Below, piece after piece: positions 10,694 to 38,688 of a DNA stretch of 38,688 nucleotides. The stretch lies in IMG/VR virus record IMGVR_UViG_2703718837_000002. The stretch is one strand, 5' to 3'. Source of the DNA: a virus. Taxonomy: Duplodnaviria > Heunggongvirae > Uroviricota > Caudoviricetes. Each line of letters begins with the position of its first letter. Within the stretch, counting starts at the first letter, position 1. A model generated the notes under the pieces. The model worked only from the letters and a program-made list of their open reading frames with translations. It did no database searches and was not told the origin of the DNA. The translations under genes were made by a program, and so were the position numbers.

Positions 10694-10861
10694 TAACCTA
10701 CCATCGAACACGGCTCTATTGATCTCATCGTCGTTCAGGCTTATAGTTCCACCGTCGTAGCAAATTCTGCGACCAGGTTTGACAGCCTGAATACGAATGC
10801 GGACAACCGCAGATTTCCGATATTGCGGTATTTTTGTGTCCGTAAACCACGTTACGCCCGA

Positions 10862-10944
10862 ATTATGGTGGGGCGTGATGGGGAGGCTTCGGCCTGCTGG
10901 TTTCATTCGTGCCAGTCTGTCAACCCTGTCACGTCCTGCCACCT
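10862..10944 (+). ncRNA. c4-like antisense RNA (module A); boundaries approximate
   Basis: UUCG-capped hairpin at 10883-10896, then CATTCGT (10904-10910) and CTGTCAA (10917-10923), exactly complementary to ACGAATG and TTGACAG at the icd-like RBS (10946-10985) and at an upstream site (10778-10799). Confidence 0.5.
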
Positions 10945-10993
10945 GTTTGACAGCGGGTCGCAGGTTGTTAAACCTACGAATGAGGCCGTAACT

Positions 10994-11215
10994 ATGGTTA
11001 ATGCCAATCCTTGCGCACGCCCTGAATTTATCTGGCGCTTTTACTCCTGCCAGAAACGTCACTATCACTTCGTAATTGCACCGACAGAAGATGAGGCCCG
11101 CTCTCTGCTTCCTGACGCTCCCTGCATTTTCTCTGCCCGCTTTTCCACTGATTCGCGCAACTCTCTCAGTTACTGGTGCCTCCCTGTTAACGCTTCTGCT
11201 CAGGAGGGACTATGA
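10994..11215 (+). CDS. Icd-like small protein (73 aa)
   Basis: ATG at 10994 preceded by GAGG; ATGA overlap with the Ant-like gene; FIWRF...EDEAR..L...C.F.AR pattern resembles Icd-like proteins; the ORF track's longer 10823 start is rejected. Confidence 0.6.
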   Translation: MVNANPCARPEFIWRFYSCQKRHYHFVIAPTEDEARSLLPDAPCIFSARFSTDSRNSLSYWCLPVNASAQEGL

Positions 11216-12303: not shown

Positions 12304-12315
12304 TTAAATTAAAAA

Positions 12316-12333
12316 GGCGGCCTTTCGGCCGCC
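12316..12333. terminator. Hairpin GGCGGCC-TTTC-GGCCGCC (also present after Ant B at 25815-25832)
   Basis: Perfect 7-bp stem; A-run upstream gives a T-run on the minus strand, so it may terminate the convergent pro transcript. Confidence 0.45.
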
Positions 12334-12347
12334 AGTGATTTCAGATA

Positions 12348-12373
12348 CCCCGGCAGCCGCCGGGGTTATTTTT
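12348..12373 (+). terminator. Intrinsic terminator after Ant A
   Basis: Stem CCCCGGC/GCCGGGG followed by TTATTTTT. Confidence 0.6.
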
Positions 12374-12378
12374 GGTGG

Positions 12379-15109
<2,731 letters not shown>

Positions 15110-15175
15110 TTAATTAGAATAATTCACATCGTGTTTGAACGGAATTTAACACTAGTCACTTGTTAAGGATTACCA

Positions 15176-18100: not shown

Positions 18101-21100
18101 GAACAATACGCCCGCATTCCGCTACGTGATGACACCGTAGATGAGCATGCACAGGATATGCTTTATGACTTCGTTGCTGCCGGGCGCGTAGCCAGCGCAA
18201 TGGACTCCGACTCCCACCGCAAAGAGGCCGCGCGTCGCCGGGTATTGTCGGAGTATTCAGATACCGGTACCGAAAAAGCAGAGAAGTATCCGTACTTTGA
18301 GGATATGGGCTTCGACAGCGTGATTGCTGACGAAGGCCACAACTACCGCAATAGCTATAAAAATGGTCGCGAAGCGTCACAGCTGGCCTATCTGCCCACC
18401 AGCGCGGTGGCGCAATCGGCGCGAGATATGGCAATCAAAAACGCGTACCTGATGAAAAAGAATGGTGGGCGTGGACCGGTTCTCCTGACTGCAACGCCAG
18501 TCGTTAACACCCCGATCGATGCATACAACATGCTTTCTCATGTTCTGCCGAAGGAATACTGGCAGAAGATGGGGATCTACGGTCCTGATGACTTCGTTAA
18601 ATTCTTCGGCAAGACCAGGCTGGAAACGGTACAGAAAATTAGCGGTGAAGTTGAAGAAAAAATGGCGCTGGTGGGCTTTGAAAACCTTGATGCGCTGCGC
18701 GGTATATTCCATCGCTGGGTAACGCTTAAAACGGCGGAAGACGTTAAGGATACCGTGGAGATCCCGGAGCTGGACGAACACCAGCAGGATGCACCACTTA
18801 CTGAAGAACAACTGGCGGCGTATGAAGAATTGCGTCAGCAGGCGGAAGCGGCGGCCAAAGCCAACAATGGCGTAACGACCTCGGTCAATGAAGACGGCGT
18901 GATTGAGCACGAGAAAGCCCGTCCGATCTTCTCAATAATCAGGGATATGGACCGCGTATGTACTGACATGGACCTGTACTATCGCCGGATCACCTATCGT
19001 TTCCTGCCGGAGTATGCCGATGCGGTGCAGCAGCTGGCGGACAGTTTGCCTAAACAAGCCACCAGCGAAGACGACGACAGTGATGATTCAATCACGCAGC
19101 AATCGCAATACTCCCTGATAGATAAGGGCGAGTTTATTCAGTTGCAGGTTCCGGAAGCGTTCGAGCAGGAAGTGAATAAGCGCCTGGCCAGGTTTGGCAT
19201 TGACGAACAGACCGTAACTCACCCCGTTACGCCCAAATACGCGAAGCTGATTGCCACGCTGAAGGAGTTTTTCCCGGAAGGTAAGCAAATCATCTTCACG
19301 GACGAAAAAACGCAGCACCAGAAGCTCAAGCGCATTATCTGCAATGCTCTTAACCTTGAACCTTCAAAGGTGGGGATCCTGAATGCTCAGACGGTTGCCG
19401 AGGCAGGTAAAACCGGTAAGAAACTGAAAGCGGTTAAACCGCCGAAAGAGTTACCGGATGAACCAACAGATGCACAGATAGCGAAATACAACGAGCAAAT
19501 GGCTCTGTATGACGCCTATATCGCGCAGCAAAATGAAATGTCGTTGGGCGGTCTGGAAAAGATTGCAGCCGACTTCCAGGAGGGCCGGACTCCGATCATC
19601 ATCTGCAACAAAAAGGCAGAGGTGGGTATCAACCTGCATCGAGGAACGACTGACATCCATCATCTGACGTTGCCGTGGACTCCAGCCAGTATCGCACAAC
19701 GTAACGGTCGCGGTGCCCGAGTTGGCTCCAACCGTGCAAGCGTTCGCGTTCACTACTACTGCGGCAAGGGTTCTTTCGATGAATACCGACTGAAGACGCT
19801 GAAGCGTAAAGCAGGCTGGATCTCCGATATCCTCCGTTCAGATAAGTCAGAAATGGAGAACGCCGACGCCAACGATATGATCGAAATGCAGATGTATACC
19901 GCTAAGGATGATGGCGAACGTCTGGCAATGATGCAGGTTCAAATGGATAAGGCGAAAGCCGCGCAACGCGCTCGCCAGAAAGAACAGGCTACTATCGACC
20001 TTCAGAACTACATCAAGGCGCAGCACGCAGCTGGCGAGGATGTGGAGGTACTTACCGCTGAATTAGAGCGAAGCAAAGCGGAACTTGAAAAGACCACCGC
20101 CGACGTCGACAAATTCAAACAAGCAGCAATGGCCAAAGCAGCTGATAACGCAGACTGGAAGGCACGTTGGGGGAGTGTCCATAACGCTGACCGTATGTTG
20201 TTAGCTCGATATCGCGCTTCGTTAAAAAATGCTATTCAACAGAAGGCTAATATCTCTCAAGCCATCTCCCGCTATGAGAAATTATTGAACCGTACCCAGA
20301 AGGCCGCGACGGATATCAAACGCCTGCGCCCGCTGGTGGAGGATGCAATAAATAAAGGCATTCTGGATGTTGATCCTGACCTGGTTAACCATGCGAGTGA
20401 GTTCCTTGTTATCGGCGATCGCTCATGGCGTGTAGGCCAATACTATGATTGTGCCGGTGATATCGTCCGCATTAAGTCTCTGGACTTCGACAGCCAGCGC
20501 GCAGACGTGGAGATCATCTTTACCTTCAAAGGCACAAAATCTGGTAACTGGGATGTGAAGACGCTGGATAAACAGGTGGATGTAACTCCCGATGAAGATG
20601 CTGTTATGCAGAAAATCAGTGGTGGCGTCTCCATCGCCGGGATTAACGACATCATTTCCTGTGACGATTTCTACCGTTTCCAGCAGCGCGGCATGATCAA
20701 AATCACTGACTCGTACGGCGTTCAGACTACAGAGTCAGGCTATAGCATTGATTTTGTTGGTACCTATACGGACCCACTGAAGCATGCGGTTTACCCGGAT
20801 CGCCGTGACGGCGCGCTGAAGTCGTCAATTGCAAAATGGGTGCTTGGTATGATGTCTGAAGGGAATAACCGCCAGGTCCGTTTGGCAGAAGTATTCCTGA
20901 CTGAACTGTTTGGCTCCAATTATGGCGATGTAATCGCGTCATATGGAGATACGCTATCCCCTGAAGCAATTCAGGAGAAAATAGCGGATGCGATCGCCAG
21001 AATGCCGGAGAAAACAAGCCAGGGGGCTACTCGTAACGGGGATTCTGAACTTGAGGTCACCAATGCCATTTTCGGTACCCATGAGTTCCGGGCGTCAGAT

Positions 21101-22417: not shown

Positions 22418-22662
22418 AAAAGCGATACTACACAGTAAAGCATGGGACGCTACGAGCATTACAAGAGTTTGCTGACAAGCATAACGTTGAGGTGCGCAGG
22501 GAAGGGGGAAGTAAAGCTCTGCGCATGTACCGTCCGGACGGGAAATGGCGTACGGTCGTCGATTTCAAAACTAACAGTGTTCCCCAAGGCGTCCGCGATC
22601 GGGCATTCGAAGAATGGGAGCAGATCATCATAGATAACGCATTGCTCCTTAATGCTGATTAA
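22414..22662 (+). CDS. lxc: Lxc-like small protein (82 aa)
   Basis: ATGA overlap with ulx; by position and size. Confidence 0.45.
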   Translation: MKKRYYTVKHGTLRALQEFADKHNVEVRREGGSKALRMYRPDGKWRTVVDFKTNSVPQGVRDRAFEEWEQIIIDNALLLNAD

Positions 22663-22670
22663 TGGTTTTG

Positions 22671-22710
22671 TTTCCCGGTATCGTATTATACCGGGAAATA
22701 TCTTTTTATA
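22671..22710 (+). terminator. Intrinsic terminator closing darB-ulx-lxc
   Basis: Stem TTTCCCGGTAT/ATACCGGGAAA with 6-nt loop followed by TATCTTTTTATA. Confidence 0.65.
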
Positions 22711-23109
22711 TTAACCCGCGGCTGCAATTAGTGCCGACCCAACCGCCAGTGTGGTGACAAGGCCTATAATGACGACTGTAGCTGTTACCCCACCTGCAAC
22801 AGCTGCTCCAGTCTTTGTTTTGGATAACTCTTTCTTTTCTAGAGAAATGATTTCACCCATAGGAATAGACTGGTTGTTAATACCATTGATATATTGTGGG
22901 GTAACGTTCGATACTGTCATTTCACCTTCGCTACCTGATTTTAACTTGTATTTAATTAGGTCACCAGCATATATCGGTGGCTCTGTTAAATAATAGGTAC
23001 TTCTTTCAAGGTTTTTTTGCTTTATGTTAACTCCTTGATAAGACTGACATCCACATAACACAAGTGATAAAATTAGCGTCATCAGTAAATTTCTTTTATT
23101 TTTTATCAT
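22711..23109 (-). CDS. Small envelope protein (about 132 aa): signal peptide with LCGC lipobox-like motif, C-terminal Gly/Ala-rich membrane anchor
   Basis: Strong AAGGAGAAGGAG RBS 8 nt before ATG at 23109 (the track's GTG start at 23118 is less likely); low GC; ends on the lxc terminator. A TTGACA with an imperfect -10 lies upstream. Confidence 0.6.
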   Translation of the reverse strand: MIKNKRNLLMTLILSLVLCGCQSYQGVNIKQKNLERSTYYLTEPPIYAGDLIKYKLKSGSEGEMTVSNVTPQYINGINNQSIPMGEIISLEKKELSKTKTGAAVAGGVTATVVIIGLVTTLAVGSALIAAAG

Positions 23110-23243
23110 TGTCTGCACTCCTTCTCCTTTTCTTTGTATAGCTAAAACAAATCATTTATTCTTGTCAAATAGTTTTTAGTTTGAGAGTGAGGTTTACGTG
23201 ACGATGCTCTAAAAGTTGCAGATAGCGGTAAAGATAATTTTAT

Positions 23244-23912
23244 TTACAATATGTTACCTTTTCCGGTAAGTATACCTTGCGGTACTTTTCTTTCCCCCAT
23301 AAGTTGAGTGGCATGAATGATATTAATAAATGACATTAGTTGTGATGAACTCTGATTCACATTTATCTTTCCAGCCATTGCCCTGATGTAGTCAGCGCTG
23401 GCAACGTTGTTGTATTCCGTTGCGAAGCAGCATAACAACGTCAGAACGTGCTCTGTCGTTATTTCACTCCAGTTGATGTTGAAAAATTCATCGCCTTTTT
23501 TGTCGTGTTCGGAATCGAAGATGCTTTGGTGGAGGATATATTTGCCGGATTCCTTGCGCGGTAACTTTATCGCTTTCTGGCGTTCCAATTCCTTGTAAAT
23601 CTGCATTGCTTCAATCAGTACCGGTCTGCCGTTCATGAAGGGATCACGCAACCTTACACGCTGGCCAACTCGACCGGTAATAAAGCTGTTTTCCTCTTCC
23701 ACCAGCACGATAAAACCCTTTTCCTCTTTTTCTCGCAATTCGCGCAGCAGCTGGAGTTCCATATCGCGGCGGCGCTCAGGGTAGCTGGTCCGCTCAGCCA
23801 TTATCAGCTCATTGTTGATCCATGCAGCAGTCATTGACGCCGGTTTGCCGACGCTCATTGAAACAACGCATATTTTCTTATCCATAGCGCCCCTACAAAA
23901 AAGAAAAGCCAC
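23244..23912 (-). CDS. Hypothetical protein (213-222 aa) with a charged coiled-coil-like segment
   Basis: Maximal ORF; more likely start is MDKKICVV at 23885; no assignable domain; low GC. Confidence 0.5.
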   Translation of the reverse strand: MAFLFCRGAMDKKICVVSMSVGKPASMTAAWINNELIMAERTSYPERRRDMELQLLRELREKEEKGFIVLVEEENSFITGRVGQRVRLRDPFMNGRPVLIEAMQIYKELERQKAIKLPRKESGKYILHQSIFDSEHDKKGDEFFNINWSEITTEHVLTLLCCFATEYNNVASADYIRAMAGKINVNQSSSQLMSFINIIHATQLMGERKVPQGILTGKGNIL

Positions 23913-24144
23913 CAGCGGCGGCTTAGCAAAACAACTGAAGGTAGCGCCCGGTACTCAGACTGTGCCGTCCATGGAATATTTGAAAAGGGATCCATCCGTA
24001 CCGGGCGTGTGATGATTCTGACTCAAGTCACTTGTCAGTTGTCAATTATTTCAGATTAAAAATAATATATTTATTAGTGCATACAATTAAAACAATAAGT
24101 GTGCACATTGCAACCTCGGAGAGGAAACATTCAACCAGATTGTT

Positions 24145-24161
24145 ATTGCTCTAATAAATTT
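24145..24161 (+). promoter_or_regulatory. C1 operator (perfect 17-mer)
   Basis: ATTGCTCTAATAAATTT. Confidence 0.75.
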
Positions 24162-24346
24162 GATTTATTGAAACAAATAAACTACTATTGGACGCCAGAC
24201 TATTGATCTTCCTGTTGTTCAGGCTTATAGTTCCTACGTCATAGCAAATTCTGCGACCGGGTTTAGCAGCCTGAATGTACATGCGGACAACCGCAGATTT
24301 CCGATATTGCGGTATTTTTATGTCCGTAAAACCGCGTTACGCCCGA

Positions 24347-24429
24347 ATTATGGTGGGGCGTGATGGGGAGGCTTCGGCCTGCTGGTTTCATGTACGCCAG
24401 TCTGCTAACCCCGTCACGTCCTGCCACCT
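24347..24429 (+). ncRNA. c4-like antisense RNA (module B); boundaries approximate
   Basis: Same scaffold as A, but core elements CATGTAC (24389-24395) and CTGCTAA (24403-24409) complement GTACATG and TTAGCAG at the B target sites (24262-24283 and 24431-24470). Confidence 0.5.
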
Positions 24430-24478
24430 GTTTAGCAGCGGGTAGCAGGTTGTTAAACCTGTACATGAGGCCGTAACT

Positions 24479-24700
24479 ATGGTTAATGCCAATCCTTGCG
24501 CACGCCCTGAATTTATCTGGCGCTTCTATTCTTGTCAAAAACGTCACTATCACTTCGTTATCGCACCAACAGAAGATGAGGCACGTTCTCAGCTTCCGGA
24601 TGCTCCCTGCATTTTCTCCGCCCGCTTTTCTACCGATTCGCGCAATTCTCTCAGTTACTGGTGCCTCCCTGTTAACGCTTCGGCTCAGGAGGGGCTATGA
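24479..24700 (+). CDS. Icd-like small protein (73 aa)
   Basis: Paralog of the module A icd-like ORF; GAGG RBS overlapped by the antisense target. Confidence 0.6.
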   Translation: MVNANPCARPEFIWRFYSCQKRHYHFVIAPTEDEARSQLPDAPCIFSARFSTDSRNSLSYWCLPVNASAQEGL

Positions 24701-25809
24701 GAACGTCATTAGTCACCCGTGAAGAGATGATCGAGGCAATTGAACAGCACACTGCCTGTATCAGTACCAGGGATATACCAGGTGTTATTGCCAACTACTT
24801 CATGATCACCAAACAACTTTACCGGAGAAAGGACAAGAACGCGGTTCACCGCATTCTGCTAACCGATATCCGTGAATACCTGCTCGAACAGGGTCATCTG
24901 AATTATGCAACCGTCGCAGCCGAAGCACGCAAGGAGGCACACAGAATGAAAGCAACTAACGTTAAATCAGAAAAAATTCATGCACCTTCAGTTCAGGAAT
25001 CAGAGCTGGTGGTTGTTCAGAATCAGCCTGATGAAATTCCCGTTCTGGAATGGCAGGGAGTACGTGTCGTGACAACCGAAACTCTTGCTAGAGGGTATGG
25101 GACCGAAACTAATAACATCAAAGTTAACTATACGCGTAATGCTGATCGCTTTGAGGAAGGTAAACATTACTTTCTACTAACTGGTTCAAAATTAAAAGAA
25201 TTGAAGGACAAGGTTACTCAAAGTAACTTAGTCGCACCGCGAGCAAAGCACCTCACTCTCTGGACGGAACGCGGCGCAGCCCGCCACGCTAAAATGATCG
25301 AAACCGATCAGGCATGGGCATTCTTTGAAAAACTGGAAGACAGCTACTTCCGACAAAAAGAACAGCAACCGGTTGCAATCCCCCAGACGCTTCCAGAAGC
25401 CCTGCGCCTGGCTGCCGAACTGGCTGAACAAAAGCAACTTCTGGAACAGAAAGCCCACCAGCTAAATCAGCAGCTGGTGGCCGCAGCCCCCAAAGTCGAT
25501 TTTGCCGACCGGGTATCAGTGGCCAAGGGGATCCTGATTGGGAATTTTGCAAAGGTTGTTGGACTTAAGCAAAACGCGCTGTTTGCCTGGTTACGGGAGA
25601 ACGGCATCCTGATAGCGTCCGGCGGACGTAAAAATGTGCCGTTCCAGCAATACATCAACGCCGGGTATTTTTCTGTGAAAGAAGTGGTGCTGGATGATGA
25701 AGATGGCTATCAGATACGACTGACGCCCCAGTTAACGGGGAAAGGCCAGCAGTGGTTGACGCGTAAACTGCTCGATGCTGGCTTGTTAAAACCGGTGGCG
25801 GCTGAGTGA
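24697..25809 (+). CDS. Ant-like antirepressor paralog B (370 aa)
   Basis: ATGA-coupled to the icd-like ORF; Bro-N/KilA-C-like architecture. Confidence 0.7.
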   Translation: MRTSLVTREEMIEAIEQHTACISTRDIPGVIANYFMITKQLYRRKDKNAVHRILLTDIREYLLEQGHLNYATVAAEARKEAHRMKATNVKSEKIHAPSVQESELVVVQNQPDEIPVLEWQGVRVVTTETLARGYGTETNNIKVNYTRNADRFEEGKHYFLLTGSKLKELKDKVTQSNLVAPRAKHLTLWTERGAARHAKMIETDQAWAFFEKLEDSYFRQKEQQPVAIPQTLPEALRLAAELAEQKQLLEQKAHQLNQQLVAAAPKVDFADRVSVAKGILIGNFAKVVGLKQNALFAWLRENGILIASGGRKNVPFQQYINAGYFSVKEVVLDDEDGYQIRLTPQLTGKGQQWLTRKLLDAGLLKPVAAE

Positions 25810-25956
25810 TTAAAAAAGGCGGCCTTTCGGCCGCCAATGATGTCACGGAGTCTGTAATAGCAATGTCTTTGTAGTTGACTAATTATATAAATAAATTATA
25901 GCAATTATATGTGGTTTGCTTATCGGGAATCACATTTCCTCACTTCAGTACCTATG

Positions 25957-27852: not shown

Positions 27853-27886
27853 ATAACTTCGTATAATGTATGCTATACGAAGTTAT
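27853..27886. other. loxP: loxP recombination site
   Basis: Exact ATAACTTCGTATA-ATGTATGC-TATACGAAGTTAT. Confidence 0.98.
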
Positions 27887-27929
27887 TAGGTCTGAAGAGG
27901 AGTTTACGTCCAGCTGCGCATAAAAATCA

Positions 27930-27946
27930 AGAATTATTAGAGCAAT
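27930..27946 (-). promoter_or_regulatory. C1 operator-like site (2 mismatches)
   Basis: AGAATTATTAGAGCAAT. Confidence 0.45.
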
Positions 27947-28005
27947 AAATTTTGAGAGAAAAATCCCACTCCACCAGCCAAAAACTGGATTGTTTTTCAT
28001 AGTTG

Positions 28006-28034
28006 TTTGACAATTGCTCTAATAAATTATAGTT
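28006..28034 (+). promoter_or_regulatory. Sigma70-type promoter with embedded C1 operator (P99-like), reading toward coi-c1
   Basis: TTGACA (28006-28011), 17-nt spacer containing ATTGCTCTAATAAATTA (28013-28029), then TATAGT (28029-28034). Confidence 0.65.
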
Positions 28035-28267
28035 TTGCCGCCGTTTCGTAATACGACTTTGGATTCACTATTTAATGTGTCTTCAGCGTTGTAGAGCGGC
28101 TCAGAAGGAAATGAGCAAACAGGGAAACCTTATACAACGGCATTACAGCTATGCATTGCTCATCTTACACACAGCGCAATGTTGTTAGATTACCCCAGCA
28201 TGGATCATGGGTGAAACAGTAGGTCAGAGCTTCAGGCTCTGTGTTGTCAATACAGTGAGGCATAATT

Positions 28268-28477
28268 ATGGCTTTCATTCCACCAACCATCGACGACGTT
28301 AGACATTGCTCTAACGCTTTATCTGTAGACCCCGCCGAAACCGACGCTGCCCGCGCCATTGCTGAACACTACTCAAAGATATCCAATCAGGAGTACCGCA
28401 TCACCCAAGACGACCTGGATGATCTCACTGACACAATCGAATATCTCATGGCCACTAACCAGCCAGACTCACAATAA
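28268..28477 (+). CDS. coi: Coi-like C1 inactivator (69 aa)
   Basis: 69-aa ORF immediately upstream of c1 on the same strand, as in P1 immC. Confidence 0.65.
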   Translation: MAFIPPTIDDVRHCSNALSVDPAETDAARAIAEHYSKISNQEYRITQDDLDDLTDTIEYLMATNQPDSQ

Positions 28478-28523
28478 ATGCACTAATAAATCTATTATTT
28501 TCGTTGGATCCTTCTATAATGGT

Positions 28524-28564
28524 GGCCAACAACTCCCAGTGTAATCCGCTGTGAGTTGTTGGCC
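28524..28564 (+). promoter_or_regulatory. Perfect 12-bp inverted repeat in the coi-c1 spacer
   Basis: GGCCAACAACTC-N17-GAGTTGTTGGCC; TATAAT at 28515-28520 just upstream; GGAGGAGG RBS of c1 just downstream. Confidence 0.4.
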
Positions 28565-28587
28565 ATGTCAATTCTGGAGGAGGATCA

Positions 28588-29439
28588 ATGATAAATTATG
28601 TCTACGGCGAACAACTGTACCAGGAGTTCGTCAGCTTCAGGGATCTCTTTCTAAAAAAAGCTGTTGCACGCGCCCAACACGTTGATGCCGCCAGCGACGG
28701 TCGTCCTGTTCGCCCGGTTGTCGTTCTGCCGTTCAAAGAAACGGACAGCATTCAGGCTGAAATTGATAAATGGACTTTAATGGCGCGGGAACTGGAACAG
28801 TACCCAGACCTCAATATCCCAAAGACTATTTTATATCCAGTGCCTAACATCCTTCGCGGTGTGCGTAAGGTTACAACTTATCAGACAGAAGCTGTGAACA
28901 GCGTCAACATGACCGCTGGCCGCATTATTCATCTGATTGATAAGGACATTCGCATCCAGAAAAGCGCGGGGATCAATGAGCACAGTGCGAAATACATAGA
29001 GAACCTGGAAGCAACAAAAGAGCTAATGAAGCAGTACCCGGAGGATGAAAAATTCCGTATGCGTGTACACGGCTTTAGCGAAACAATGCTGCGCGTCCAT
29101 TACATTTCCAGTAGCCCTAACTACAATGATGGTAAATCAGTTAGTTACCATGTGCCGCTGTGTGGTGTGTTTATCTGCGATGAAACTCTCCGTGATGGAA
29201 TCATCATCAACGGTGAATTCGAGAAAGCAAAATTTAGCCTTTATGACTCTATAGAACCGATCATCTGCGACCGCTGGCCGCAGGCAAAAATATATCGCCT
29301 GGCAGATATTGAAAATGTAAAAAAACAAATTGCCATCACTCGCGAAGAGAAAAAGGTCAAATCAGCCGCATCAGTTACGCGCAGCCGTAAAACCAAGAAG
29401 GGGCAGCCAGTAAACGACAACCCCGAAAGCGCGCAATAA
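28588..29439 (+). CDS. c1: C1 repressor of lytic functions (283 aa)
   Basis: Starts MINYVYGEQLYQEFVSFRDLF, 283 aa, matching P1 C1; its operators are scattered across the window. Confidence 0.93.
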   Translation: MINYVYGEQLYQEFVSFRDLFLKKAVARAQHVDAASDGRPVRPVVVLPFKETDSIQAEIDKWTLMARELEQYPDLNIPKTILYPVPNILRGVRKVTTYQTEAVNSVNMTAGRIIHLIDKDIRIQKSAGINEHSAKYIENLEATKELMKQYPEDEKFRMRVHGFSETMLRVHYISSSPNYNDGKSVSYHVPLCGVFICDETLRDGIIINGEFEKAKFSLYDSIEPIICDRWPQAKIYRLADIENVKKQIAITREEKKVKSAASVTRSRKTKKGQPVNDNPESAQ

Positions 29440-29443
29440 ATTA

Positions 29444-29470
29444 TGCCCGGCATCAACCGGGCATTCTTCC
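29444..29470 (+). terminator. Intrinsic terminator after c1
   Basis: Stem TGCCCGG/CCGGGCA with 6-nt loop followed by a T-rich tract. Confidence 0.5.
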
Positions 29471-29471
29471 A

Positions 29472-30584
29472 TTATTCAGCCGCCACCGGTTTTAACAAGC
29501 CAGCATCGAGCAGTTTACGCGTCAACCACTGCTGGCCTTTACCCGTTAATTGGGGCGTCAGCCGTATCTGGTAGCCATTTTCATCATCCAGCACCACTTC
29601 TTTCACCGTGAAATACCCCGCGTTGATGTACTGCTGGAACGGCACATTTTTACGTCCACCGGACGCTATCAGGATGCCGTTCTCCCGTAACCAGACAAAC
29701 AGCGCGTTTTGCTTAAGTCCAACAACCTTTGCAAAATTCCCAATCAGGATCCCTTTAGCTACTGATACCCGGTCGGCAAAATCGACTTTAGGAGCGGCGG
29801 CCACCAGCTGCTGATTTAGCTGGTGGGCTTTCTGTTCCAGAAGTTGCTTTTGTTCAGCCAGCTCGGCAGCCAGACGCAGGGCTTCTGGAAGCGTCTGGGG
29901 GATTGCGATCGGTTGCTGTTCTTTTTGTCGGAAGTAGTTGTCTTCCAGTTTTTCAAAGAATGCCCATGCTTCATTTGTGTCCACGATCTTAGACATGCGT
30001 GCAGCGCCGCGCTCTGTCCAGAGTGTAAGGCTTCTGGCGTTCTTACCAACAGAGTAACTTCCGGTTACTCTGTTCTTAAATTCTCTTAATTTTAAACCAG
30101 TTAGAAGAAAGTAATGCTTACCTTCTTCAAAGCGGTCAAGGTTGCGAGACAAATTGTTGCGAATATTGGCTTCATCGACCCCATACCCTCTAGCAAGAGT
30201 TTCGGTTGTCACGACACGTACTCCCTGCCATTCCAGAACGGGAATTTCATCCGGCTGATTCTGAACAACCACCAGCTCTGATTCCTGAACTGAAGGTGCA
30301 TAAATTTTTTCTGATTTAACGTTAGTTGCTTTCATTCTGTGTGCCTCCTTGCGTGCTTCGGCTGCGACGGTTGCGTAATTCAGATGACCCTGTTCGAGCA
30401 GGTATTCACGGATATCGGTTAGCAGAATGCGGTGAACCGCGTGTTTGTCCTTTCTCCGGTAAAGTTGTTTGGTGATCATGAAGTAGTTGGCAATAACGCC
30501 CGGTATATCCTTGGTACTGATACAGGCAGTGTGCTGTTCAATTGCCTCGATCATCTCTTCACGGGTGACTAATGACGTTCTCAT
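29472..30584 (-). CDS. Ant-like antirepressor paralog C (370 aa)
   Basis: ATGA-coupled to the icd-like ORF; full-length paralog of A and B. Confidence 0.7.
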   Translation of the reverse strand: MRTSLVTREEMIEAIEQHTACISTKDIPGVIANYFMITKQLYRRKDKHAVHRILLTDIREYLLEQGHLNYATVAAEARKEAHRMKATNVKSEKIYAPSVQESELVVVQNQPDEIPVLEWQGVRVVTTETLARGYGVDEANIRNNLSRNLDRFEEGKHYFLLTGLKLREFKNRVTGSYSVGKNARSLTLWTERGAARMSKIVDTNEAWAFFEKLEDNYFRQKEQQPIAIPQTLPEALRLAAELAEQKQLLEQKAHQLNQQLVAAAPKVDFADRVSVAKGILIGNFAKVVGLKQNALFVWLRENGILIASGGRKNVPFQQYINAGYFTVKEVVLDDENGYQIRLTPQLTGKGQQWLTRKLLDAGLLKPVAAE

Positions 30585-30802
30585 AGTCCCTCCTGAGCAG
30601 AAGCGTTAACAGGGAGGCACCAGTAACTGAGAGAGTTGCGCGAATCAGTGGAAAAGCGGGCAGAGAAAATGCAGGGAGCGTCAGGAAGCTGAGAACGGGC
30701 CTCATCTTCTGTCGGTGCAATAACGAAGTGATAGTGACGTTTCTGGCAGGAATAGAAGCGCCAGATGAATTCAGGATGAGTTGGGGTAGGGACAGTAGCC
30801 AT
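30581..30802 (-). CDS. Icd-like small protein (73 aa) with a distinct N-terminus (MATVPTPTHPEFIW...)
   Basis: AAAGGAGG RBS; first nine residues differ from A and B, the rest is conserved. Confidence 0.6.
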   Translation of the reverse strand: MATVPTPTHPEFIWRFYSCQKRHYHFVIAPTEDEARSQLPDAPCIFSARFSTDSRNSLSYWCLPVNASAQEGL

Positions 30803-30857
30803 AATGGCAGCCTCCTTTGACTAAGTTAAGGAGCTACCGCGTGAGGTCTCAATCTCA

Positions 30858-30930
30858 ATGGCGGTAGCACTGACTGGGTTGAGACTACCGGCGTCAAAGG
30901 GAACCGGCCTGCCTTTCGGCAGCCCAGCCA
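30858..30930 (-). ncRNA. c4-like antisense RNA (module C); boundaries approximate
   Basis: Minus-strand GAAA-capped hairpin (30908-30925), then CCCTTTGAC (30893-30901) and GTCTCAA (30879-30885), complementary to GTCAAAGG(AGG) at the RBS (30811-30821) and TTGAGAC (within 30845-30859); the same two target motifs recur upstream at 31018-31044. Confidence 0.4.
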
Positions 30931-31142
30931 GCACTACCATTGATTTCGGAGCTAAACGCTACGTATGGCTGTGCGATGGCATGACACAAAAAAAAGACGC
31001 TTTCGGCGTCTGTGTCGCCTTTGACATTATTCGGGGTCTCAATCCCGGCACCCGTTTTAATGAGGTGCCTGATAAGCATAAACCGAAAATGCCTCAAGGC
31101 GCAAGAGGTCAGGTTCAATGTAACATCGGCAGTTAAAAAACA

Positions 31143-31160
31143 CAATTTATTAGAGCAAAT
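31143..31160 (-). promoter_or_regulatory. C1 operator-like site at the 5' edge of module C
   Basis: Minus strand reads ATTTGCTCTAATAAATTG. Confidence 0.55.
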
Positions 31161-31162
31161 AT

Positions 31163-32647
31163 TCATTCATTAAGCCATGCCAGAGCTTCATCAACCTGCG
31201 CTTCGTCTTCGACGCTAAGCACTTCATCCTGGGGAACATAATCCGCCAGCATAGCGAAACAATATGTATCCCAATGGTCTGGTGAGTGCAGGTTGAGTTT
31301 TTTCTTCATATCCTCCTTACTCATCACCTTCCATTGACCTGCGGAGTTAATCCCTACAGGGATTTTCGACGCTTCCTCAATAGTTTCATTACCCTTATCC
31401 AGTCTCATACGACCAGATTTTACGGCCTCTGCGGCTTGAACGTTGGCATAAGCACGTTTATCAAAGTACAGGCTCTTATCTTCACGGCTATGCATCTTTT
31501 TACCCCAGCGTATGCGCTGTACGGTAATACCATAATACTCGTACATCAGATCCGCCGTTGCTTTACCCAGGCCATCGCCGTCTATCGCTATGGTGATATT
31601 TGGGAATCGCTCAGGATTACATTCTGCGAAAATTTTGGCGGCAAGCTGCGTTTCTGTAACGTCTGTGTATTCCAGCATTCGATAGTTGATTACACGGCGT
31701 TTATTTCGCTGGCCGGACACCATCATGATATTGATAACGGACTTATCCCGTCCCGTACCACCAGCAACGTCCACACATGCAAGCCAGCCCCATCCTTTTG
31801 CAATCTTGACTTTCCGCCGCGTTGCACGTTCAACCTCATCACGTCCAAGAAGGAAGCCATCCTGTGATTTAGGGAATAGGCCGCGTACCTTAATCATGTA
31901 CATAGGGTTATCACGCCCGCCGTACTCCGCCAGCTTCATTTTGATAAATGCTGGCGTTACCAACGGTGATTCCTCACTGTTAAGCGTGATCGCCGTATAA
32001 ACGCCATCAGGGTTACCAGGACGCTTGGCCAGTTTATGGTGTGTATCGTAGAAATAGCCGCTTGGGCGTGTAGGCTGTGACAGCAATAAGATGCGGTTAT
32101 CCTGTCCGGTAAGAGCACCGGTGATGATACCGAAAGCTCTATCACTGACACCGGAGGCTTCATCGATAATATACAGAAGATGATCTGCGTGTTCACCGGC
32201 GAGAGCTTCTTCACTTCCCAGACGAAAGCCCTTCGGTACTACAGTCCATACACCTTTACCAGTAACCTCATAGAAAGCGGTTTCTGTCAGAACAAAATAA
32301 TCAGCAAGCCATGGAAAACGGCTGGTGGCAGTAGCCCAGTTTATCTTGATGTACTTGAATATACCGGTCATTACCTGCTGAATTTTGTTCGCAACGATAA
32401 TGGCGCGGGCACCGGGATACATGATTATGAACAACATGATCATGATAGAAGTCATGTCTGATTTCCCGGTACCGTGACCAGACGAAACAGATGTCTTGCT
32501 ACCCTGTTCCTGCACAGACTCAATAATCAGATCCTGCTGCCAGGTAGGTGTTTTGCCGAACAAAACATCAGCGGCCGCAATCCAGTCATAACGATATAGC
32601 GCCACCAGCTCGCGCCAACGTGGGTCCGTTACGCAACTTCTGGCCAT
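31163..32647 (-). CDS. pacB: PacB, terminase large subunit (494 aa)
   Basis: 494-aa ORF overlapping the pacA stop; size and position as in P1. Confidence 0.75.
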
Positions 32648-33840
32648 TAATCATCATCCCCGTACAGTTTGCGGGTAACTTCTTCGTCTTCCTCCTCGTC
32701 TTCGTCCAGATCCTGTTCAAGCCATGCTTCGTTTGATATGCCTTCCGCATCGACATCACCATAACCACCTGTATCGACGATATCGGCAATTTCTTCTCTA
32801 CGATGCTCAATCCACAATGCGGCATCAGCGCGGCGGCTGGCGGCCCGTTCTCGCGCGATTTTATCCAGATCTTCAAGTGATGGAGCGCCAGATGCTGTTT
32901 GGTTTTCCTCATCATCGGTATTGGTCTTAGGAGCACGCAGATCGGCTTTGATTTGCTCCAGCATCAGGGGCGGCACTTTCCCTCCATGCGCCTCGATGAA
33001 TTCAGCCGCTTCCAGAACTGACCAGTTATTTTCACGCTTTCGTTCGTATGCCAACTTAACAATGCCAGCTTGCCCCATAGATAAAGCGTGCTTTTCCGCC
33101 TCCCGGCTTTCTTTTCGATAGTTATTCCGGATGCTGTAAATGGTGTTGATCAGGCTGCTTATCTGCGCGGAACAGCTGTTTAGCATGCTCGCGATACGGT
33201 ATTCAGGCGGAGTACCTTCATCATCGTCTTTTTTCTGATCGCGCATTTCCTGCACCAGGCGAATACACGTATCCCTGGCGTTCTCCAGCATAAGGAGATG
33301 AGAAAGAGACTTTTCAAGAAGAGTTGTTTCCAGAACATCGGCCCCGGACCGACGCAACATAGCGCGCGCGGCCTTCCGCGCTTCAACGTTATCTATCAGG
33401 TAATCGCCAGCTTCGAATTCAAAGCGTTCACCATCATCATCCAGGGTGTCGCGTTCCAGGCGATCACGTAAGGTCCGGTGGGCGCGGGTGATCACGTCAT
33501 GATCATCAGAACGATCATTTATGCGCTTATTTTGGCGCTTCGCATTCTCGACTGCGGCACTGACAACGGCATTAACTCTCTGTTTTTCCGCTATTTCAGC
33601 CGCAATATGATCACCTGCATGTTGATCATTAGAGTGATCAATGATCATGCTTTTTAGTGGCTTCCTGACTGGCTTATTTGGCTTGCGGCTGTCCGCAGTC
33701 CTGGTGTCTTCTTTGAAGGCACGGAGATAACGACGTGCGGTATTAGGGTTAAGATTAAACTCGGCGGCATACTGTGCGATGGTGTAACCACCATCTCGCG
33801 CCAGGCGAGCAAAATTCTTCTTGTGATCGTCCCAGGTCAC
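32647..33840 (-). CDS. pacA: PacA, terminase small subunit / pac-recognition protein (397 aa)
   Basis: 397-aa ORF containing the pac hexamer clusters near its 5' end. Confidence 0.8.
33490..33646. other. pac: pac packaging site: two clusters of GATC-containing hexamers inside pacA
   Basis: TGATCA/TGATCG-type elements at 33490, 33501, 33513 (three) and 33609, 33624, 33636, 33643 (four), i.e. the 3 + 4 arrangement of P1 pac. Confidence 0.75.
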
Positions 33841-33926
33841 TTATGCTTCCTTTCGTATAAAACTCTTTTTGACGCGAGGGTAACGAAAGTCACATGTCAA
33901 AAGGCCCGGAACGGGCAAGCAATCAA

Positions 33927-35538: not shown

Positions 35539-35739
35539 TTATCTGCTGCCCGGCATTCTCTGTTTAAGCACAACCATTTCCTGACGGCATAACACAGCAA
35601 TAGCGGTCCTGGCACCAATTTGCTTACCAACCAGGTATTGCTTTACCTCGCGGCGACTCACGCCATCAAGAAGCATCTTTAACGCTTCACGGGACAATTT
35701 GTTGTATTTGCGTGCCATTAATCTACTCCGCAGAACCAT
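35539..35739 (-). CDS. pdcA: PdcA-like small protein (66 aa)
   Basis: Small ORF overlapping the doc 3' end; by position. Confidence 0.4.
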
Positions 35740-36103
35740 ACAATCTACGTAACGTGTCGGCGACAGAAGATACAGATATCTCGCCAGTCGCAGCGCCTAC
35801 AGTAAGGTCTGCCAGTTCAGGTGAATCAAATACCTGCACCCCGTTACGGCGTAGAAATAACAGCGCACTGTTTAGCGCGGTACGCTTATTGGCATCATTG
35901 AATATATGCCCTCTCGCTGTAGCCACCAGGTAGGTGGCAGAGACTTCGAAAAGGTCGGTGATCTCTTCGTAGGCAACTCTGGCCTGAACTCTCCCGATAA
36001 TGGCCTCTGCCCTACCCTGATCTGACATTCCCGGCAGGCCGCCGTAGCGGTTTATATTCGCATCATGAAGCGCAATAAGTTCTTCCGGTGATATATGCCT
36101 CAT
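35723..36103 (-). CDS. doc: Doc toxin (Fic-fold kinase) of the Phd-Doc addiction module (126 aa)
   Basis: [25 protein letters not shown]...[14 protein letters not shown]; overlaps the phd stop. Confidence 0.93.
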
Positions 36104-36324
36104 TATCGGTTAACCAGTTCCTTGTTGGTGGAGTCCAGGGTGTCAAACAGGGATGCAAATTCAGCATCCAGCGCCGCTTTTTTGTAGGCTTCAAAAGTAG
36201 CCTTGCTGACAATTACTGCTGGCTCACGGCCTCTGCGGGTGATTTCAACCTCTTCCCCAGCTTCAACATTGTTGAGCACTTCAGAAAGGTTGCCACGCGC
36301 GGTACGGAAGTTAATGGATTGCAT
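36103..36324 (-). CDS. phd: Phd antitoxin (73 aa)
   Basis: [49 protein letters not shown]..., matching P1 Phd; the track's 2-codon upstream extension is rejected. Confidence 0.92.
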
Positions 36325-36396
36325 AAACATCTCGTGTACTCGTTATGTGTACACAATTATAAACTTCACAGGCATAAAGCACCAGCACTTTGTAGC

Positions 36397-36696
36397 TTAA
36401 ATCACCGGACAATCATCAAATTCCCCACTTCGGGCATCATTGATGACATGAGTGATCACACCCAAAACAGCATTACTACCCGTGTAACCATCGTCATCTA
36501 CTGGTAACGCCTCTTTCTTCCCGGTGCTTAAATCCTCCAGGTGCTGGCGCGGATACTTTCGGTATCTCTTTATGCGATATTCACCCTCCATAGCGCAGAC
36601 AAGCAGCGAACCATCAACCGGAGTAAGCGAGGAATCAACCACCAGCAAAGCACCCTGCAATATTCCCTCACGGTGATGGCTGTCTGCCACCCGCAT
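36397..36696 (-). CDS. humD: HumD, UmuD'-like protein (99 aa)
   Basis: UmuD-like C-terminal fold sequence; LexA box upstream. Confidence 0.7.
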   Translation of the reverse strand: MRVADSHHREGILQGALLVVDSSLTPVDGSLLVCAMEGEYRIKRYRKYPRQHLEDLSTGKKEALPVDDDGYTGSNAVLGVITHVINDARSGEFDDCPVI

Positions 36697-36804
36697 GAAG
36701 TAGGTCGCTGATGGATGCCTGATTAGTTGCTGATCAAGAGAAATTCTGCTTTCAACATAATCCGCCGCAGGAGAAGGGAAGCCATAGCGTTTTCACCTCA
36801 ACAA

Positions 36805-36824
36805 TACTGTTCATTTATACAGTA
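36805..36824. promoter_or_regulatory. LexA (SOS) box
   Basis: TACTGTTCATTTATACAGTA, perfect CTGT-N8-ACAG; lies between divergent humD and the 190-aa gene. Confidence 0.75.
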
Positions 36825-36959: not shown

Positions 36960-37532
36960 ATGCCTAATCGCATTCCTCTCGATCCTGTATTGCCCAAAAA
37001 TTTTGACTGCACTCCTAACGAGAAACGCTCTAAAGCTCAGCTGGACGCCTGGTGGGACCATCCCTATGGGGTTACAGAACATGACGGGAAAATTGTTGTT
37101 TATTGTCTGAATGGTGGCGCGTGGGACCGTCCATCCGTGCTTGGTTTGGCAAATAACTATGATGAAGCCTGTGAACTTGCCGAAAGACAGCAGGCTAGAT
37201 GGGTGAAAACACGTTCTGAACCGACATTCATGTTTTCAAAAGAACCGCCATTTATACTGGCGAGGATGCCGCAGCGACCGGATCATCAACAAGAAATTGT
37301 TGCTGAATTTTCCTCAAGGGATGAGATGAATATCTTCTCATTAAAGCAGGAAGAAAGGGATCGCGTCGAAGTGTCTCCAACTCTCGACCACAACCGGATG
37401 AACCTGGCCCAACTCGCCTGGTACAGCAAAGAATTAGAGATGTCTATTGCCCGGCTTGAGAACGAAAAAGCCGCTATCCAGGCCCAGCATGACGTAGTTC
37501 TGAACCGGATTAGAGAAATGCAAAACCGATAA
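36960..37532 (+). CDS. Hypothetical protein (190 aa) with a C-terminal coiled-coil
   Basis: AAGGAA RBS; no assignable domain; about 135 nt downstream of the LexA box. Confidence 0.5.
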   Translation: MPNRIPLDPVLPKNFDCTPNEKRSKAQLDAWWDHPYGVTEHDGKIVVYCLNGGAWDRPSVLGLANNYDEACELAERQQARWVKTRSEPTFMFSKEPPFILARMPQRPDHQQEIVAEFSSRDEMNIFSLKQEERDRVEVSPTLDHNRMNLAQLAWYSKELEMSIARLENEKAAIQAQHDVVLNRIREMQNR

Positions 37533-37580
37533 TAGGAAATAGGTGATAGGATGTTTTTATAAAAAACTATAAATATAAAG

Positions 37581-37610
37581 TACCTAGTGATCATATAAAA
37601 CCACTAGGTA
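37581..37610. promoter_or_regulatory. 9-bp inverted repeat TACCTAGTG-N12-CACTAGGTA between convergent genes
   Basis: Perfect arms in an AT-rich spacer; no flanking T-run on either strand. Confidence 0.3.
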
Positions 37611-37639
37611 CAAGTTATTAACAACCAGTATTCAGTACA

Positions 37640-38688
37640 TTATCTCCATGCAGCACAGAATACAGGGAAAAGAAATTGAGCATGAACGGCACTAGTATCA
37701 GTTGATGGTCCCTGATACTTATCTGGTTTCACACTCGTTCCATTAGGCCAATTGAAGTTTCTATATGCCTCTATAGCATAATTGTAGACGATATTTCTGC
37801 CGTTATAAGCTGTCCCAAGCAAACCATCAACTAACTGTCCTCCATATTTACCAGCATTCGTACCCACTCCATGTTTATCCTTTTTACATTGCACCCTTGA
37901 GAGGCCCACTGCAAAATTTGCAGTACCCCCTGTTGTATTATCATCACTATGCCACCAAATATCTGAACAGCCACCTCCTGATGCAGAGTTCCATACTCGA
38001 TTAACAACCCAGTTAGTACTTGAAGTCTTCTCAGTTAACCAGCCAGTTGAATCAATAGAAAAAATACGTCCACTCCCCCCATCATAACGTGATGACGACG
38101 GGTTTGGACCAGCAGAGTCTGCATGCGCATATATCCAACCAGGGCCTACCCAAGCCGCAGATGTGATTGTTGCTGCGTTTGAAGAAAAAGCATTAGCCCA
38201 TACAGCAGTTCCGAGACTTCTCGCATTACCTTTAGTTCCACTTATCAGGACAATTCCTGTTCCGGAAACACTTCCCATATTGTTTCCTGCTGTCAGGATC
38301 CGCGAATTATAAGATGCGGCGGTAACAGGCGACATCAATCCATCTGCAAGATTCGTTAAACTGACGCCTCGTGCCGCAGCCTGCTTCAGCGCAGAGGTTG
38401 CCCACTGAACGTCCTGCATATTGCCAGCATTACAGCTCATTCCGCTAACCATTGGCGCTGTAAACGTTGTCTCTCCTTTGACATTATTGATGCTGTTTTC
38501 CTTAAATGACGTCAAGCCCCGAGGAGTAGTTACGGTCAGCGTTTTTCCTGTGCTCTGGTTGGTGAATGTAAATGTTTTTGGCCACTCTTTATTGATGCGA
38601 GGCGTAGCAGCCCAGGTTGTGGTGGTACTCCATGTTTTTAAATCGCCACTTACACCATTATCCTTATAGTTCGAAATATTAGAATTAT
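37640..38688 (-). CDS. Tail-fibre-like protein, C-terminal part (5' end lies beyond the window)
   Basis: Reading frame is open to the window edge upstream of the track's TTG start; G/S/T/N/W-rich composition typical of receptor-binding tips; AT-rich. Confidence 0.4.
   Translation of the reverse strand, partial: NSNISNYKDNGVSGDLKTWSTTTTWAATPRINKEWPKTFTFTNQSTGKTLTVTTPRGLTSFKENSINNVKGETTFTAPMVSGMSCNAGNMQDVQWATSALKQAAARGVSLTNLADGLMSPVTAASYNSRILTAGNNMGSVSGTGIVLISGTKGNARSLGTAVWANAFSSNAATITSAAWVGPGWIYAHADSAGPNPSSSRYDGGSGRIFSIDSTGWLTEKTSSTNWVVNRVWNSASGGGCSDIWWHSDDNTTGGTANFAVGLSRVQCKKDKHGVGTNAGKYGGQLVDGLLGTAYNGRNIVYNYAIEAYRNFNWPNGTSVKPDKYQGPSTDTSAVHAQFLFPVFCAAWR

Follow-up and report, generated by a model that had tools for sequence, protein, structure and literature searches.

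An inverse-autotransporter adhesin gene adjoins lxr at the edge of a P1-like element in Escherichia coli

What follows humD at the edge of this P1-like sequence, and does it indicate that the element has been rearranged? The window, which is the whole stretch of DNA analysed here, is the entire 38,688-bp contig LONZ01000062.1 of an E. coli draft genome, and the original prediction saw at its right end a synteny break beside humD, an unknown gene and a tail-fibre-like gene in the place of ban, and an element that is mosaic or rearranged relative to P1. Between its edges, positions 495–37536 are colinear with P1 from 31241 to 1 and then from 94800 to 86877, in a single order and orientation and with 94–98% identity, in a local comparison from which the stretch 27869–33870 was left out. 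This part runs from lydA through lox and onward to lxr, and the colinearity of its late, immunity and addiction genes identifies a Punavirus backbone. The lxr gene, the LexA box, humD, phd, doc, pdcA/B, lpa, pacAB and c1 match both P1 and P7 in order and orientation, with 96–98% identity. The phd (36103–36330, minus strand) and doc (35723–36103, minus strand) genes form an addiction module (35723–36330) in P1 order, and the identical sister-contig genes match PhdYeFM_antitox and Pfam Fic respectively. Judging from gene content and order, the element is very probably a P1-like phage-plasmid of about 96–98 kb, an IncY/p0111-type Punavirus that has kept the P1 gene order and carries a 9.4-kb adhesin cassette after lxr. 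The window contains most of one arm of this P1-like element, and at its right end it passes into an accessory block.

The humD gene (36397–36785, minus strand) is UmuD'-like (phrog_811, UmuD-like, E 1e-33, with a weak Peptidase_S24 match), and has a 1-nt deletion right after its ATG, within the G run at about 36781–36782 (ATGGC, versus ATGGGC in P1 and P7); internal starts leave just 99–115 aa readable. The divergent 190-aa reading frame (36960–37532, plus strand) had been described as unknown, but corresponds to lxr (P1 gp102, 'LexA regulated function'; Upf94.2 in P7), with a match to phrog_6164 at E 1e-130 and nucleotide identities of 96–98% with P1, P7, SJ46 and over 1,400 plasmids, many IncY plasmids among them. 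The product is the same length as P1 gp102, and lxr and humD have in common a LexA box, TACTGTTCATTTATACAGTA (36805–36824), which is conserved in P1 and P7 and is the counterpart of a LexA binding site in the P1 annotation (87545–87564). By length, divergent orientation and the common LexA box, the 190-aa product is Lxr, the usual divergent neighbour of humD. The premise that humD is followed by ban in P1 does not hold, as the P1 record gives the order hot > | < lxr | humD > phd > doc, with lxr adjoining humD, and ban (71295–72659) lies about 15 kb from humD (87584). In its last codons the window lxr has a 1-nt insertion relative to P7, which changes the protein end to ...MQNR.

The synteny break is real, but it is displaced from humD and lies 5–9 bp past the lxr stop codon. 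In the alignment with P1, P7 and pB16EC0268-4 all P1-family identity ends at about 37537–37541, megablast matches to the P1 family stop at 37536, and the corresponding site in P1 is occupied by hot. The right flank (37537–38688) has a GC content of 43%, compared with 49% in the P1-like part, in keeping with its earlier description as AT-rich, and it contains, as also described, a reading frame that is convergent with lxr and runs off the window edge (37640–38688, minus strand; 348 codons, with a stop at 37640). An intrinsic-terminator-like hairpin (37580–37611, minus strand) with a 13-bp stem and a T-rich tail lies 29 nt past this stop as part of the cargo; it was found by a terminator scan and has an RNA fold of -24.9 kcal/mol (z = -3.3). 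The 100 bp that separate lxr from this terminator show no apparent IS elements or direct repeats, and no IS element was seen at the far junction of the cassette, inspected by eye only.

The cut-off reading frame is identical to the C-terminus (residues 1379–1726) of a complete 1,726-aa gene in two sister contigs (L032 and L034), and is 69% identical to residues 1379–1718 of a 1,718-aa annotated inverse autotransporter of E. coli no107. Beyond the window, the full-length L032 protein has an N-terminal barrel with a LysM domain (IAT_beta, E 1.5e-95; LysM, E 1e-5) and Ig-like passenger repeats (Invasin_D3, and Big_1 in three stretches), and the barrel matches those of intimin (4E1S, 2e-70) and invasin (4E1T); Big_1 is also found in two partial homologues (P0002 and P0004). 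The cut-off portion spans the last Ig-like strands and, beyond them, roughly 290 aa of orphan tip. On this domain evidence the reading frame is the C-terminus of an inverse autotransporter (type Ve) of the intimin/invasin family, and its tip is presumably the ligand-binding end. The last 348 aa gave no Pfam, NCBIfam, PHROG, phage or PDB sequence matches and no detectable C-type lectin domain, and AlphaFold modelling of the tip, from just four available homologues, returned an unusable model with a pLDDT of 30.

The LysM domain, inverse-autotransporter barrel, Big_1/Invasin_D3 chain and distinct C-terminal tip are shared with intimin, invasin, YeeJ, IatC and IatD (PMC6714894), and the length is near that of IatD (1,747 aa; Goh et al. 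2019, PMC6714894). Those proteins have a C-type lectin-like tip, of which none is detectable here by sequence, and they are encoded on the chromosome (intimin in the LEE island), whereas the present gene is plasmid- or phage-borne. Membership of the IatC, IatD, intimin and SinH families was rejected: NCBIfam scores for IatC, intimin and SinH are far under the cut-offs, and the adhesin gene has no megablast match (roughly at least 85% identity) in complete E. coli genomes other than no107. By analogy with the family, the adhesin, if expressed, would be exported via Sec, its LysM domain would tether it to peptidoglycan, and its intimin-like beta-barrel would insert into the outer membrane; the Ig-like chain would then be threaded out so as to display the variable C-terminal tip tens of nanometres off the surface. 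The prophage-plasmid would in this way alter the adhesion or biofilm properties of the lysogen, as a form of lysogenic conversion.

The window covers just 1,049 bp of the cassette. The remainder is described from sister contigs in this lineage, which match the window exactly over the 1.29 kb they have in common with it. In these contigs about 3.0 kb of P1 sequence (pap-pmgT-pmgU-pmgV-upfM/N/O-hot) is swapped for a 9.4-kb cassette, and P1 identity returns at about P1 83830, adjoining pmgS; three contigs span the entire cassette and re-enter P1 at that point. Reading from the pmgS side, the cassette encodes a 187-aa tyrosine invertase, an 801-aa classical autotransporter (PF03797) that is divergent from the invertase, and the inverse autotransporter of 1,726 aa, which has a terminator of its own. 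The pmgS–lxr stretch is variable across the family, with pap, pmgTUV, upfMNO and hot in P1, upf93.6, IS903 and upf89-91 in P7, and different content again in IncY plasmids; the window lineage fills it with the adhesin cassette, and hot, pap and pmgT/U/V are absent. The lxr–adhesin junction is identical in all 10 of the places listed, which derive from the assembly of the window (GCA_001575355.1), a Logan run and nine further NCBI assemblies. The junction-bearing contigs listed include DABCAO010000018.1 (96,486 bp, GCA_012673535.1) and ABUWAQ020000002.1 (97,988 bp, GCA_042176185.2) and none greater than 200 kb; a further sister contig, CAUYGU010000020.1, has 104,828 bp.

A relative of the cassette was found in just one of 5,426 complete E. 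coli genomes (no107) and in none of the PLSDB plasmids, and the tip has no match among phages. The no107 locus (NZ_CP075374, 69.7–79.2 kb) is a chromosomal invertase-autotransporter-inverse-autotransporter array with 94.9% nucleotide identity to the cassette over 7.3 kb. The gene pair is in the same order, the autotransporters are 96% identical at the protein level, and the adhesins are approximately 100% identical over residues 1–900 but only about 50–70% identical in the tip; by this comparison, divergence since exchange with a no107-like copy has probably been confined to the end of the adhesin. A related recombinase, with 74.7% nucleotide identity to the cassette invertase, is shared as well. 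The no107 locus differs in being situated in a genomic island with two recombinase genes, another upstream region and a Wzz-like gene after the pair. An almost identical gene pair thus sits in this island, and the cassette was most likely acquired by exchange with a chromosomal copy.

The left edge of the window is also non-P1. Positions 1–494 are an AT-rich spacer (32% GC) with no credible reading frame, and the P1 alignment begins at 495 (P1 31241) with the LPdar late promoter region and lydA (495–882, plus strand; lydA itself at 553–882), which are annotated in P1 at 31212–31230 and 30854–31183 respectively. The earlier observation that cin is missing here is confirmed, and there is neither cin nor lydC to the left of lydA, where P1 identity ends. 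The spacer has no match in P1, any phage or PLSDB plasmids, and shows 72.6% similarity to a stretch between genes on the no107 chromosome. Positions 1–560 are 100% identical to positions 8089–8648 of sister contigs L022–L026, in which the P1 tail operon genes gp16 and R, a 925-aa variant of S and a 189-aa DUF4376 gene are located ahead of the spacer. As read from these contigs, a fixed tail-fibre tip, the DUF4376 gene and the spacer, which is the end of this module, take the place of lydC, cin and the invertible C segment. The prediction of mosaicism is thereby borne out at both window edges, with a tip module in place of lydC, cin and the C segment on the left and the adhesin cassette in place of pap-hot on the right. 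On the same sequence comparisons the element is not rearranged, as the window is colinear with P1 and sister contigs lead on leftward into the P1 tail-fibre operon and rightward into pmgS; nor is it chimeric, the junction recurring in at least 10 independent assemblies.

Could the cut-off reading frame nonetheless be a tail-fibre or receptor-binding gene that has moved beside humD and lxr, as the original prediction had it? Gly, Ser, Asn and Thr are abundant in its product, the GC content of the locus is lower, and tail-fibre tips are known to be swapped in the P1 family; the window lineage did indeed swap its tail-fibre tip, yet at the normal place past the left edge. No PHROG family matches the reading frame at E ≤ 0.1, tblastn against 50,697 phage records gave no matches, and a HMMER search of 1.84 billion representatives returned five relatives only, none of them phage-like, the long matches being a 1,716-aa protein (residues 1379–1716) and the partial P0004, and the other two 75–79-aa fragments. 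Upstream in the sister contigs the same frame enters the Big_1 repeats, the intimin-type barrel and the LysM domain, and it is followed not by a chaperone or assembly gene but by the terminator and then lxr; the neighbours of the complete gene are lxr and the autotransporter. With Pfam, PHROGs, phage tblastn, HMMER and PDB sequences all lacking a phage relative, a tail-fibre identity was rejected as hardly credible, in favour of an inverse autotransporter.

Two further explanations concern the junction rather than the gene. Many assemblies have contigs that stop within the adhesin gene, at 340 to 1,067 aa, and therefore a repeat is present there, and some E. coli carry a chromosomal paralogue of the adhesin; a P1 plasmid contig might thus have been misjoined to a chromosomal adhesin gene. 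Such a chimera, which the original prediction had allowed for in the form of a standard P1 order outside a chimeric window, is almost certainly not the explanation, as the identical junction recurs in NCBI and Logan assemblies from different projects, contigs traverse the entire cassette back into P1, and the 1-nt change at the Lxr C-terminus is specific to the junction and found only with the adhesin arrangement. Alternatively, the window could be a P1 remnant in a chromosome beside a resident adhesin island rather than a plasmid. The sole relative of both non-P1 flanks among complete E. coli genomes is one region of the no107 chromosome, and P1-like segments do occur in chromosome-sized contigs of other strains. 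Against this, the sister contigs regain P1 genes past both flanks, the two flanks are oriented to each other the opposite way from their no107 counterparts, and no contig above 200 kb carries the junction-specific Lxr, the longest listed (96–98 kb) being of P1-plasmid size. Chromosomal integration is very unlikely, if a little less so than a misjoin, and both were rejected on the sister-contig context in favour of a phage-plasmid carrying the adhesin cassette.

The invertase suggests an extension of this phage-plasmid reading, which we regard as possible rather than probable, in which the cassette is a phase-variable module and a putative promoter segment ahead of the adhesin pair would be inverted by the invertase, like fimS and ipuS. 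In the sister contigs the recombinase is in the FimB/FimE subfamily (54% identity to FimB; PRK09870 at 209 bits, cut-off 221) and lies beside its presumed target operon, 350 bp from where the autotransporter begins, a gap located at L032 18348–18696. This gap is spanned by an imperfect inverted repeat of 19 nt (79% complementary, with 228 nt between the arms), whose proximal arm coincides with the end of identity to the no107 chromosome, and after the invertase in no107 there is an inverted repeat of 29 nt whose perfect core measures 12 nt. Weighing against a switch, the segment has the same orientation in all four assemblies that cover it (L032, L033, L034 and L044), although four are too few to exclude switching, and promoter-flanking repeats with both orientations were not found; a search for inverted repeats gave weak candidates only. 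The 19-nt repeat could have arisen by chance in AT-rich DNA, and its proximal arm overlaps the ribosome-binding site. The ipuS-UpaE system is a precedent and, as at fimS, a FimB/E-family recombinase adjoins an autotransporter operon across an AT-rich spacer of 300–350 bp (Battaglioli et al. 2018, PMC6083910), as here; the cassette differs from both in its weak repeat, the absence of an observed inversion, the lack of a LuxR-type regulator, and a recombinase that is divergent from its targets.

A P1 backbone with an accessory block in a variable region, and the prospect of lysogenic conversion, are also features of the cnf3 clade (bioRxiv 10.1101/2025.09.12.675607) and of phage-plasmids carrying antibiotic resistance genes (PMC9600943), but here the cargo is a type V adhesin pair with a tyrosine invertase, and no IS elements are seen at the junctions. 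The literature searched on P1-like phage-plasmids with autotransporter or adhesin cargo contains no description of this cassette. Contigs of the lineage break systematically within the adhesin gene and at the tail-fibre tip, and the cargo is therefore hidden from plasmid and phage databases. For annotation, a G/S/N-rich reading frame of lower GC content at the edge of a phage contig need not be a tail fibre. As pmgT/U/V, hot, lydC and cin are lost from the lineage and humD is frameshifted, the prophage-plasmid might be defective.

Phage-plasmids are now known vehicles of resistance genes and some toxins, and large adhesin cargo is absent from the literature searched. The near-identity to a chromosomal island copy points to traffic between the chromosome and the phage-plasmid. 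More tentatively still than for the switch, we suggest that a P1-like lineage, so far found only in draft E. coli assemblies, spreads a self-contained and possibly phase-variable type V adhesin pair by infection, with the tip as a fast-diversifying orphan receptor-binding domain. If the element is infectious, an intimin/invasin-class adhesin and a second autotransporter would be moved between E. coli strains in one step, and a transducing phage-plasmid of this kind would directly reprogramme host adhesion or tissue tropism.

All of the features described for the right end of the window are present: a humD homologue (36397-36785, minus strand, with phd and doc to its left), a 190-aa ORF (36960-37532, plus strand), a convergent ORF at the edge, and a lower GC content (43% in the right-hand 1.15 kb versus 49% for the rest). 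The original prediction read these as a synteny break beside humD, with an unknown gene where P1 has ban, and the annotated P1 record does not bear this out. There, the local order is pmgT, pmgU, pmgV, upfM, upfN, upfO, hot, lxr, humD, phd, doc, pdcA, pdcB, lpa, with hot and lxr convergent, a LexA box between the divergent lxr and humD, and ban (71295-72659) about 15 kb away from humD. The LexA box is conserved in the window (TACTGTTCATTTATACAGTA, 36805-36824), the 190-aa ORF is equal in length to P1 gp102 and matches phrog_6164 (E 1e-130), and from phd to the end of this ORF the sequence shares 96-98% identity with P1, P7 and SJ46, as well as with over 1,400 plasmids, most of them non-mobilizable. 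By these matches the ORF is lxr, the normal P1 neighbour of humD, and the humD side is therefore without a break. Within humD itself, the G run directly following the ATG is one nucleotide short (36781-36785; ATGGC versus ATGGGC in P1 and P7), so that translation can yield no more than 99-115 aa, shortened at the N-terminus; in sister contigs of the same lineage humD is called at 99-115 aa only, or is uncalled.

The departure from P1 lies further right. The last window base with any P1-family match is 37536. Aligned base by base to P1, P7 and the IncY plasmid pB16EC0268-4, the window diverges at about 37537-37541, a few bases past the lxr stop, near which a 1-nt insertion generates a private Lxr C-terminus ending in MQNR. 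At this breakpoint P1 has hot, and P7 and pB16EC0268-4 have other small genes; the stretch beyond lxr is already variable within the P1 family. An exact-sequence look-up with this Lxr finds this lineage only, because its C-terminus is junction-specific; the sequence occurs in 31 index blocks, in no case on a contig above 200 kb.

The edge ORF (37640-38688, minus strand, 348 codons) is convergent with lxr, has its end at 37640 and stays open up to the window's final base. The window corresponds to all of contig LONZ01000062.1 (assembly GCA_001575355.1). It had been proposed to be tail-fibre-like, with a homology search as the check. No Pfam or PHROG family was matched, and tblastn against 50,697 phage records gave zero matches. 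At the DNA level, 5,426 complete E. coli genomes gave a single matching record, the no107 chromosome (NZ_CP075374), where the match covers the 3' end of a gene whose product is annotated as 'inverse autotransporter beta domain-containing protein'. The predicted protein can be aligned over its full length to residues 1379-1718 of this 1,718-aa product (69% identity, E 2e-149), which has LysM, IAT_beta, Invasin_D3 and Big_1 domains. Only four relatives were found by a word-indexed search of 5.8 billion proteins, all named E. coli proteins and none phage-like, and five when 1.84 billion representatives were searched exhaustively with HMMER. With no phage-like relatives and an inverse-autotransporter match, the tail-fibre assignment is unsupported, and we discarded it. 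Sister contigs contain a full-length, 1,726-aa inverse autotransporter whose residues 1379-1726 are identical to the product of the edge ORF and whose barrel matches the solved intimin and invasin barrels (E 2e-70 and 5e-67).

Three sister contigs span the whole insert, L032 (96,486 bp), L033 (97,988 bp) and L034 (51.7 kb), and in L032 it occupies 9.4 kb (10578-19962). The inverse autotransporter is preceded on its own strand by an 801-aa classical autotransporter (PF03797), which is in turn divergent from a 187-aa FimB/FimE-type tyrosine invertase further out. The cargo also includes a terminator-like hairpin, 29 nt past the adhesin stop codon. P1 identity returns at about P1 83830, in the first bases of pap and just past pmgS, and the insert stands in for about 3.0 kb of P1 (pap, pmgT, pmgU, pmgV, upfM, upfN, upfO and hot).

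Among complete E. coli genomes the no107 chromosome is the sole match to the autotransporter/inverse-autotransporter pair, with 94.9% identity across 7.3 kb, and the plasmids in PLSDB give none. Residues 1-900 of the no107 adhesin are essentially identical to the plasmid copy, whereas identity drops stepwise to about 50% over the last 130 residues, a pattern that would be expected for recombination or diversification of the binding tip. The two loci cease to be identical 20 bp before the autotransporter start codon, and the no107 upstream region is unlike that of the cassette: there, an invertase precedes a 29-nt inverted repeat whose core is perfect over 12 nt. This repeat (chromosome 70992-71262; 30993-31263 in the extracted locus L004; core GAACCAAAGTGT; arms 213 nt apart) lies upstream of the chromosomal pair and begins inside the 3' end of the tyrosine-type DNA invertase gene. 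The layout resembles that of ipuS, in which the distal repeat is located within ipuA (PMC6083910).

At the left edge, P1 identity starts at window 495, which corresponds to P1 31241 and lies a little past LPdar, the lydA promoter; according to the P1 annotation, similarity to p15B ends here. Sister contigs with the same DarA protein match window 1-560 at 100% identity, and in them this stretch comes after the genes of the P1 tail operon, in the order sit, gp16, R, a 925-aa S and a 189-aa DUF4376 gene. Neither lydC, cin nor the C segment is found at this module in the sister contigs. The original prediction had placed tail fibres beyond the left edge and noted the lack of a cin ORF within 550 bp of lydA, and the sister contigs, with a tail operon and no cin, agree on both points. 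P1 identity of the lineage S gene stops at about P1 37120, and the fibre tip is a fixed, non-invertible variant. In sister contig L023 (4659-8016, left of the window) S keeps the P1 N-terminus to that point, followed by about 685 unrelated residues; the DUF4376 protein takes the place of U/U', and cin and cix are absent. The trailing spacer (window 1-520) has no PLSDB match. This AT-rich spacer (window 3-431) shows 72.6% similarity to a no107 intergenic stretch (49613-50052) that shares a region with the chromosomal adhesin locus, at a distance of about 28 kb and in opposite relative orientation.

Was the element then mosaic or rearranged, as had been proposed, or an assembly chimera? Gene order within the window is strictly that of P1 with small replacements: ref is replaced, a few genes are inserted, and IS1, IS5 and EcoP1 res/mod are absent from the window. 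Both edges are replaced modules, so that the mosaic part of the proposal holds and the rearranged part does not. A chimera is contradicted by recurrence of the junction, the adhesin ORF being next after lxr in 10 of the 10 places listed (NCBI and Logan assemblies from different projects), and by the return of both flanks to P1 genes in sister contigs. Contig sizes are consistent with a replicon of about 97 kb. On this comparison the element is mosaic, neither rearranged nor chimeric, and probably not chromosomal. In draft assemblies of the lineage, contig ends recur at two places: in the adhesin gene, where the cut-off products measure 340 to 1,067 aa, and no more than about 250 bp from window position 1. 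The pattern is suggestive of repeats, or of paralogues on the chromosome, at both of the replaced modules.

Smaller differences from P1 were also observed. About 0.7 kb stands in place of the P1 type III res/mod genes and IS5 (P1 3346-9750) at window 22662-25812, with an ANT-like gene in place of ref, and a 225-aa Tad2-like gene (PF11195; 8311-8988, minus strand) is inserted between the isaA and ssb homologues, where isaB and IS1 of P1 are both absent. Three C4 antisense RNA genes (Rfam RF01695; within 10741-12303, 24225-25809 and 29472-31068) each lie just upstream of an ORF6N/ANT antirepressor-like ORF, two with an a1b1 target element and one with an adjoining isrK-like RNA; at these sites P1 has nothing, ref, or the c1-pacB spacer, and its single c4-icd-ant module is at another place.

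Variable-region cargo is known in P1-like phage-plasmids, including resistance genes, cnf3 and enterotoxins (PMC9600943; bioRxiv 10.1101/2025.09.12.675607). The literature searched makes no mention of a cassette that combines an autotransporter and an inverse autotransporter with a Fim-type invertase. PLSDB lacks the cassette, and the phage collection gave no match to the adhesin tip, the one portion compared with phages. With fimS and ipuS-UpaE as models (PMC6083910), invertase control of the cassette is plausible but unsupported: it contains only a weak 19-nt inverted repeat, and no alternative orientation was seen, all four assemblies having the segment in one orientation. The window holds just the last 1 kb of the cargo, and the adhesin function is putative. 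Intimin, invasin and IatB-D belong to the type Ve secretion family (PMC6714894), and by analogy the inverse autotransporter would first be exported by Sec, its LysM domain would bind peptidoglycan, the barrel would insert into the outer membrane, and the Ig-like chain would be exported as a hairpin with the tip exposed. The prophage-plasmid may in this way confer new adhesion or biofilm traits on its host.
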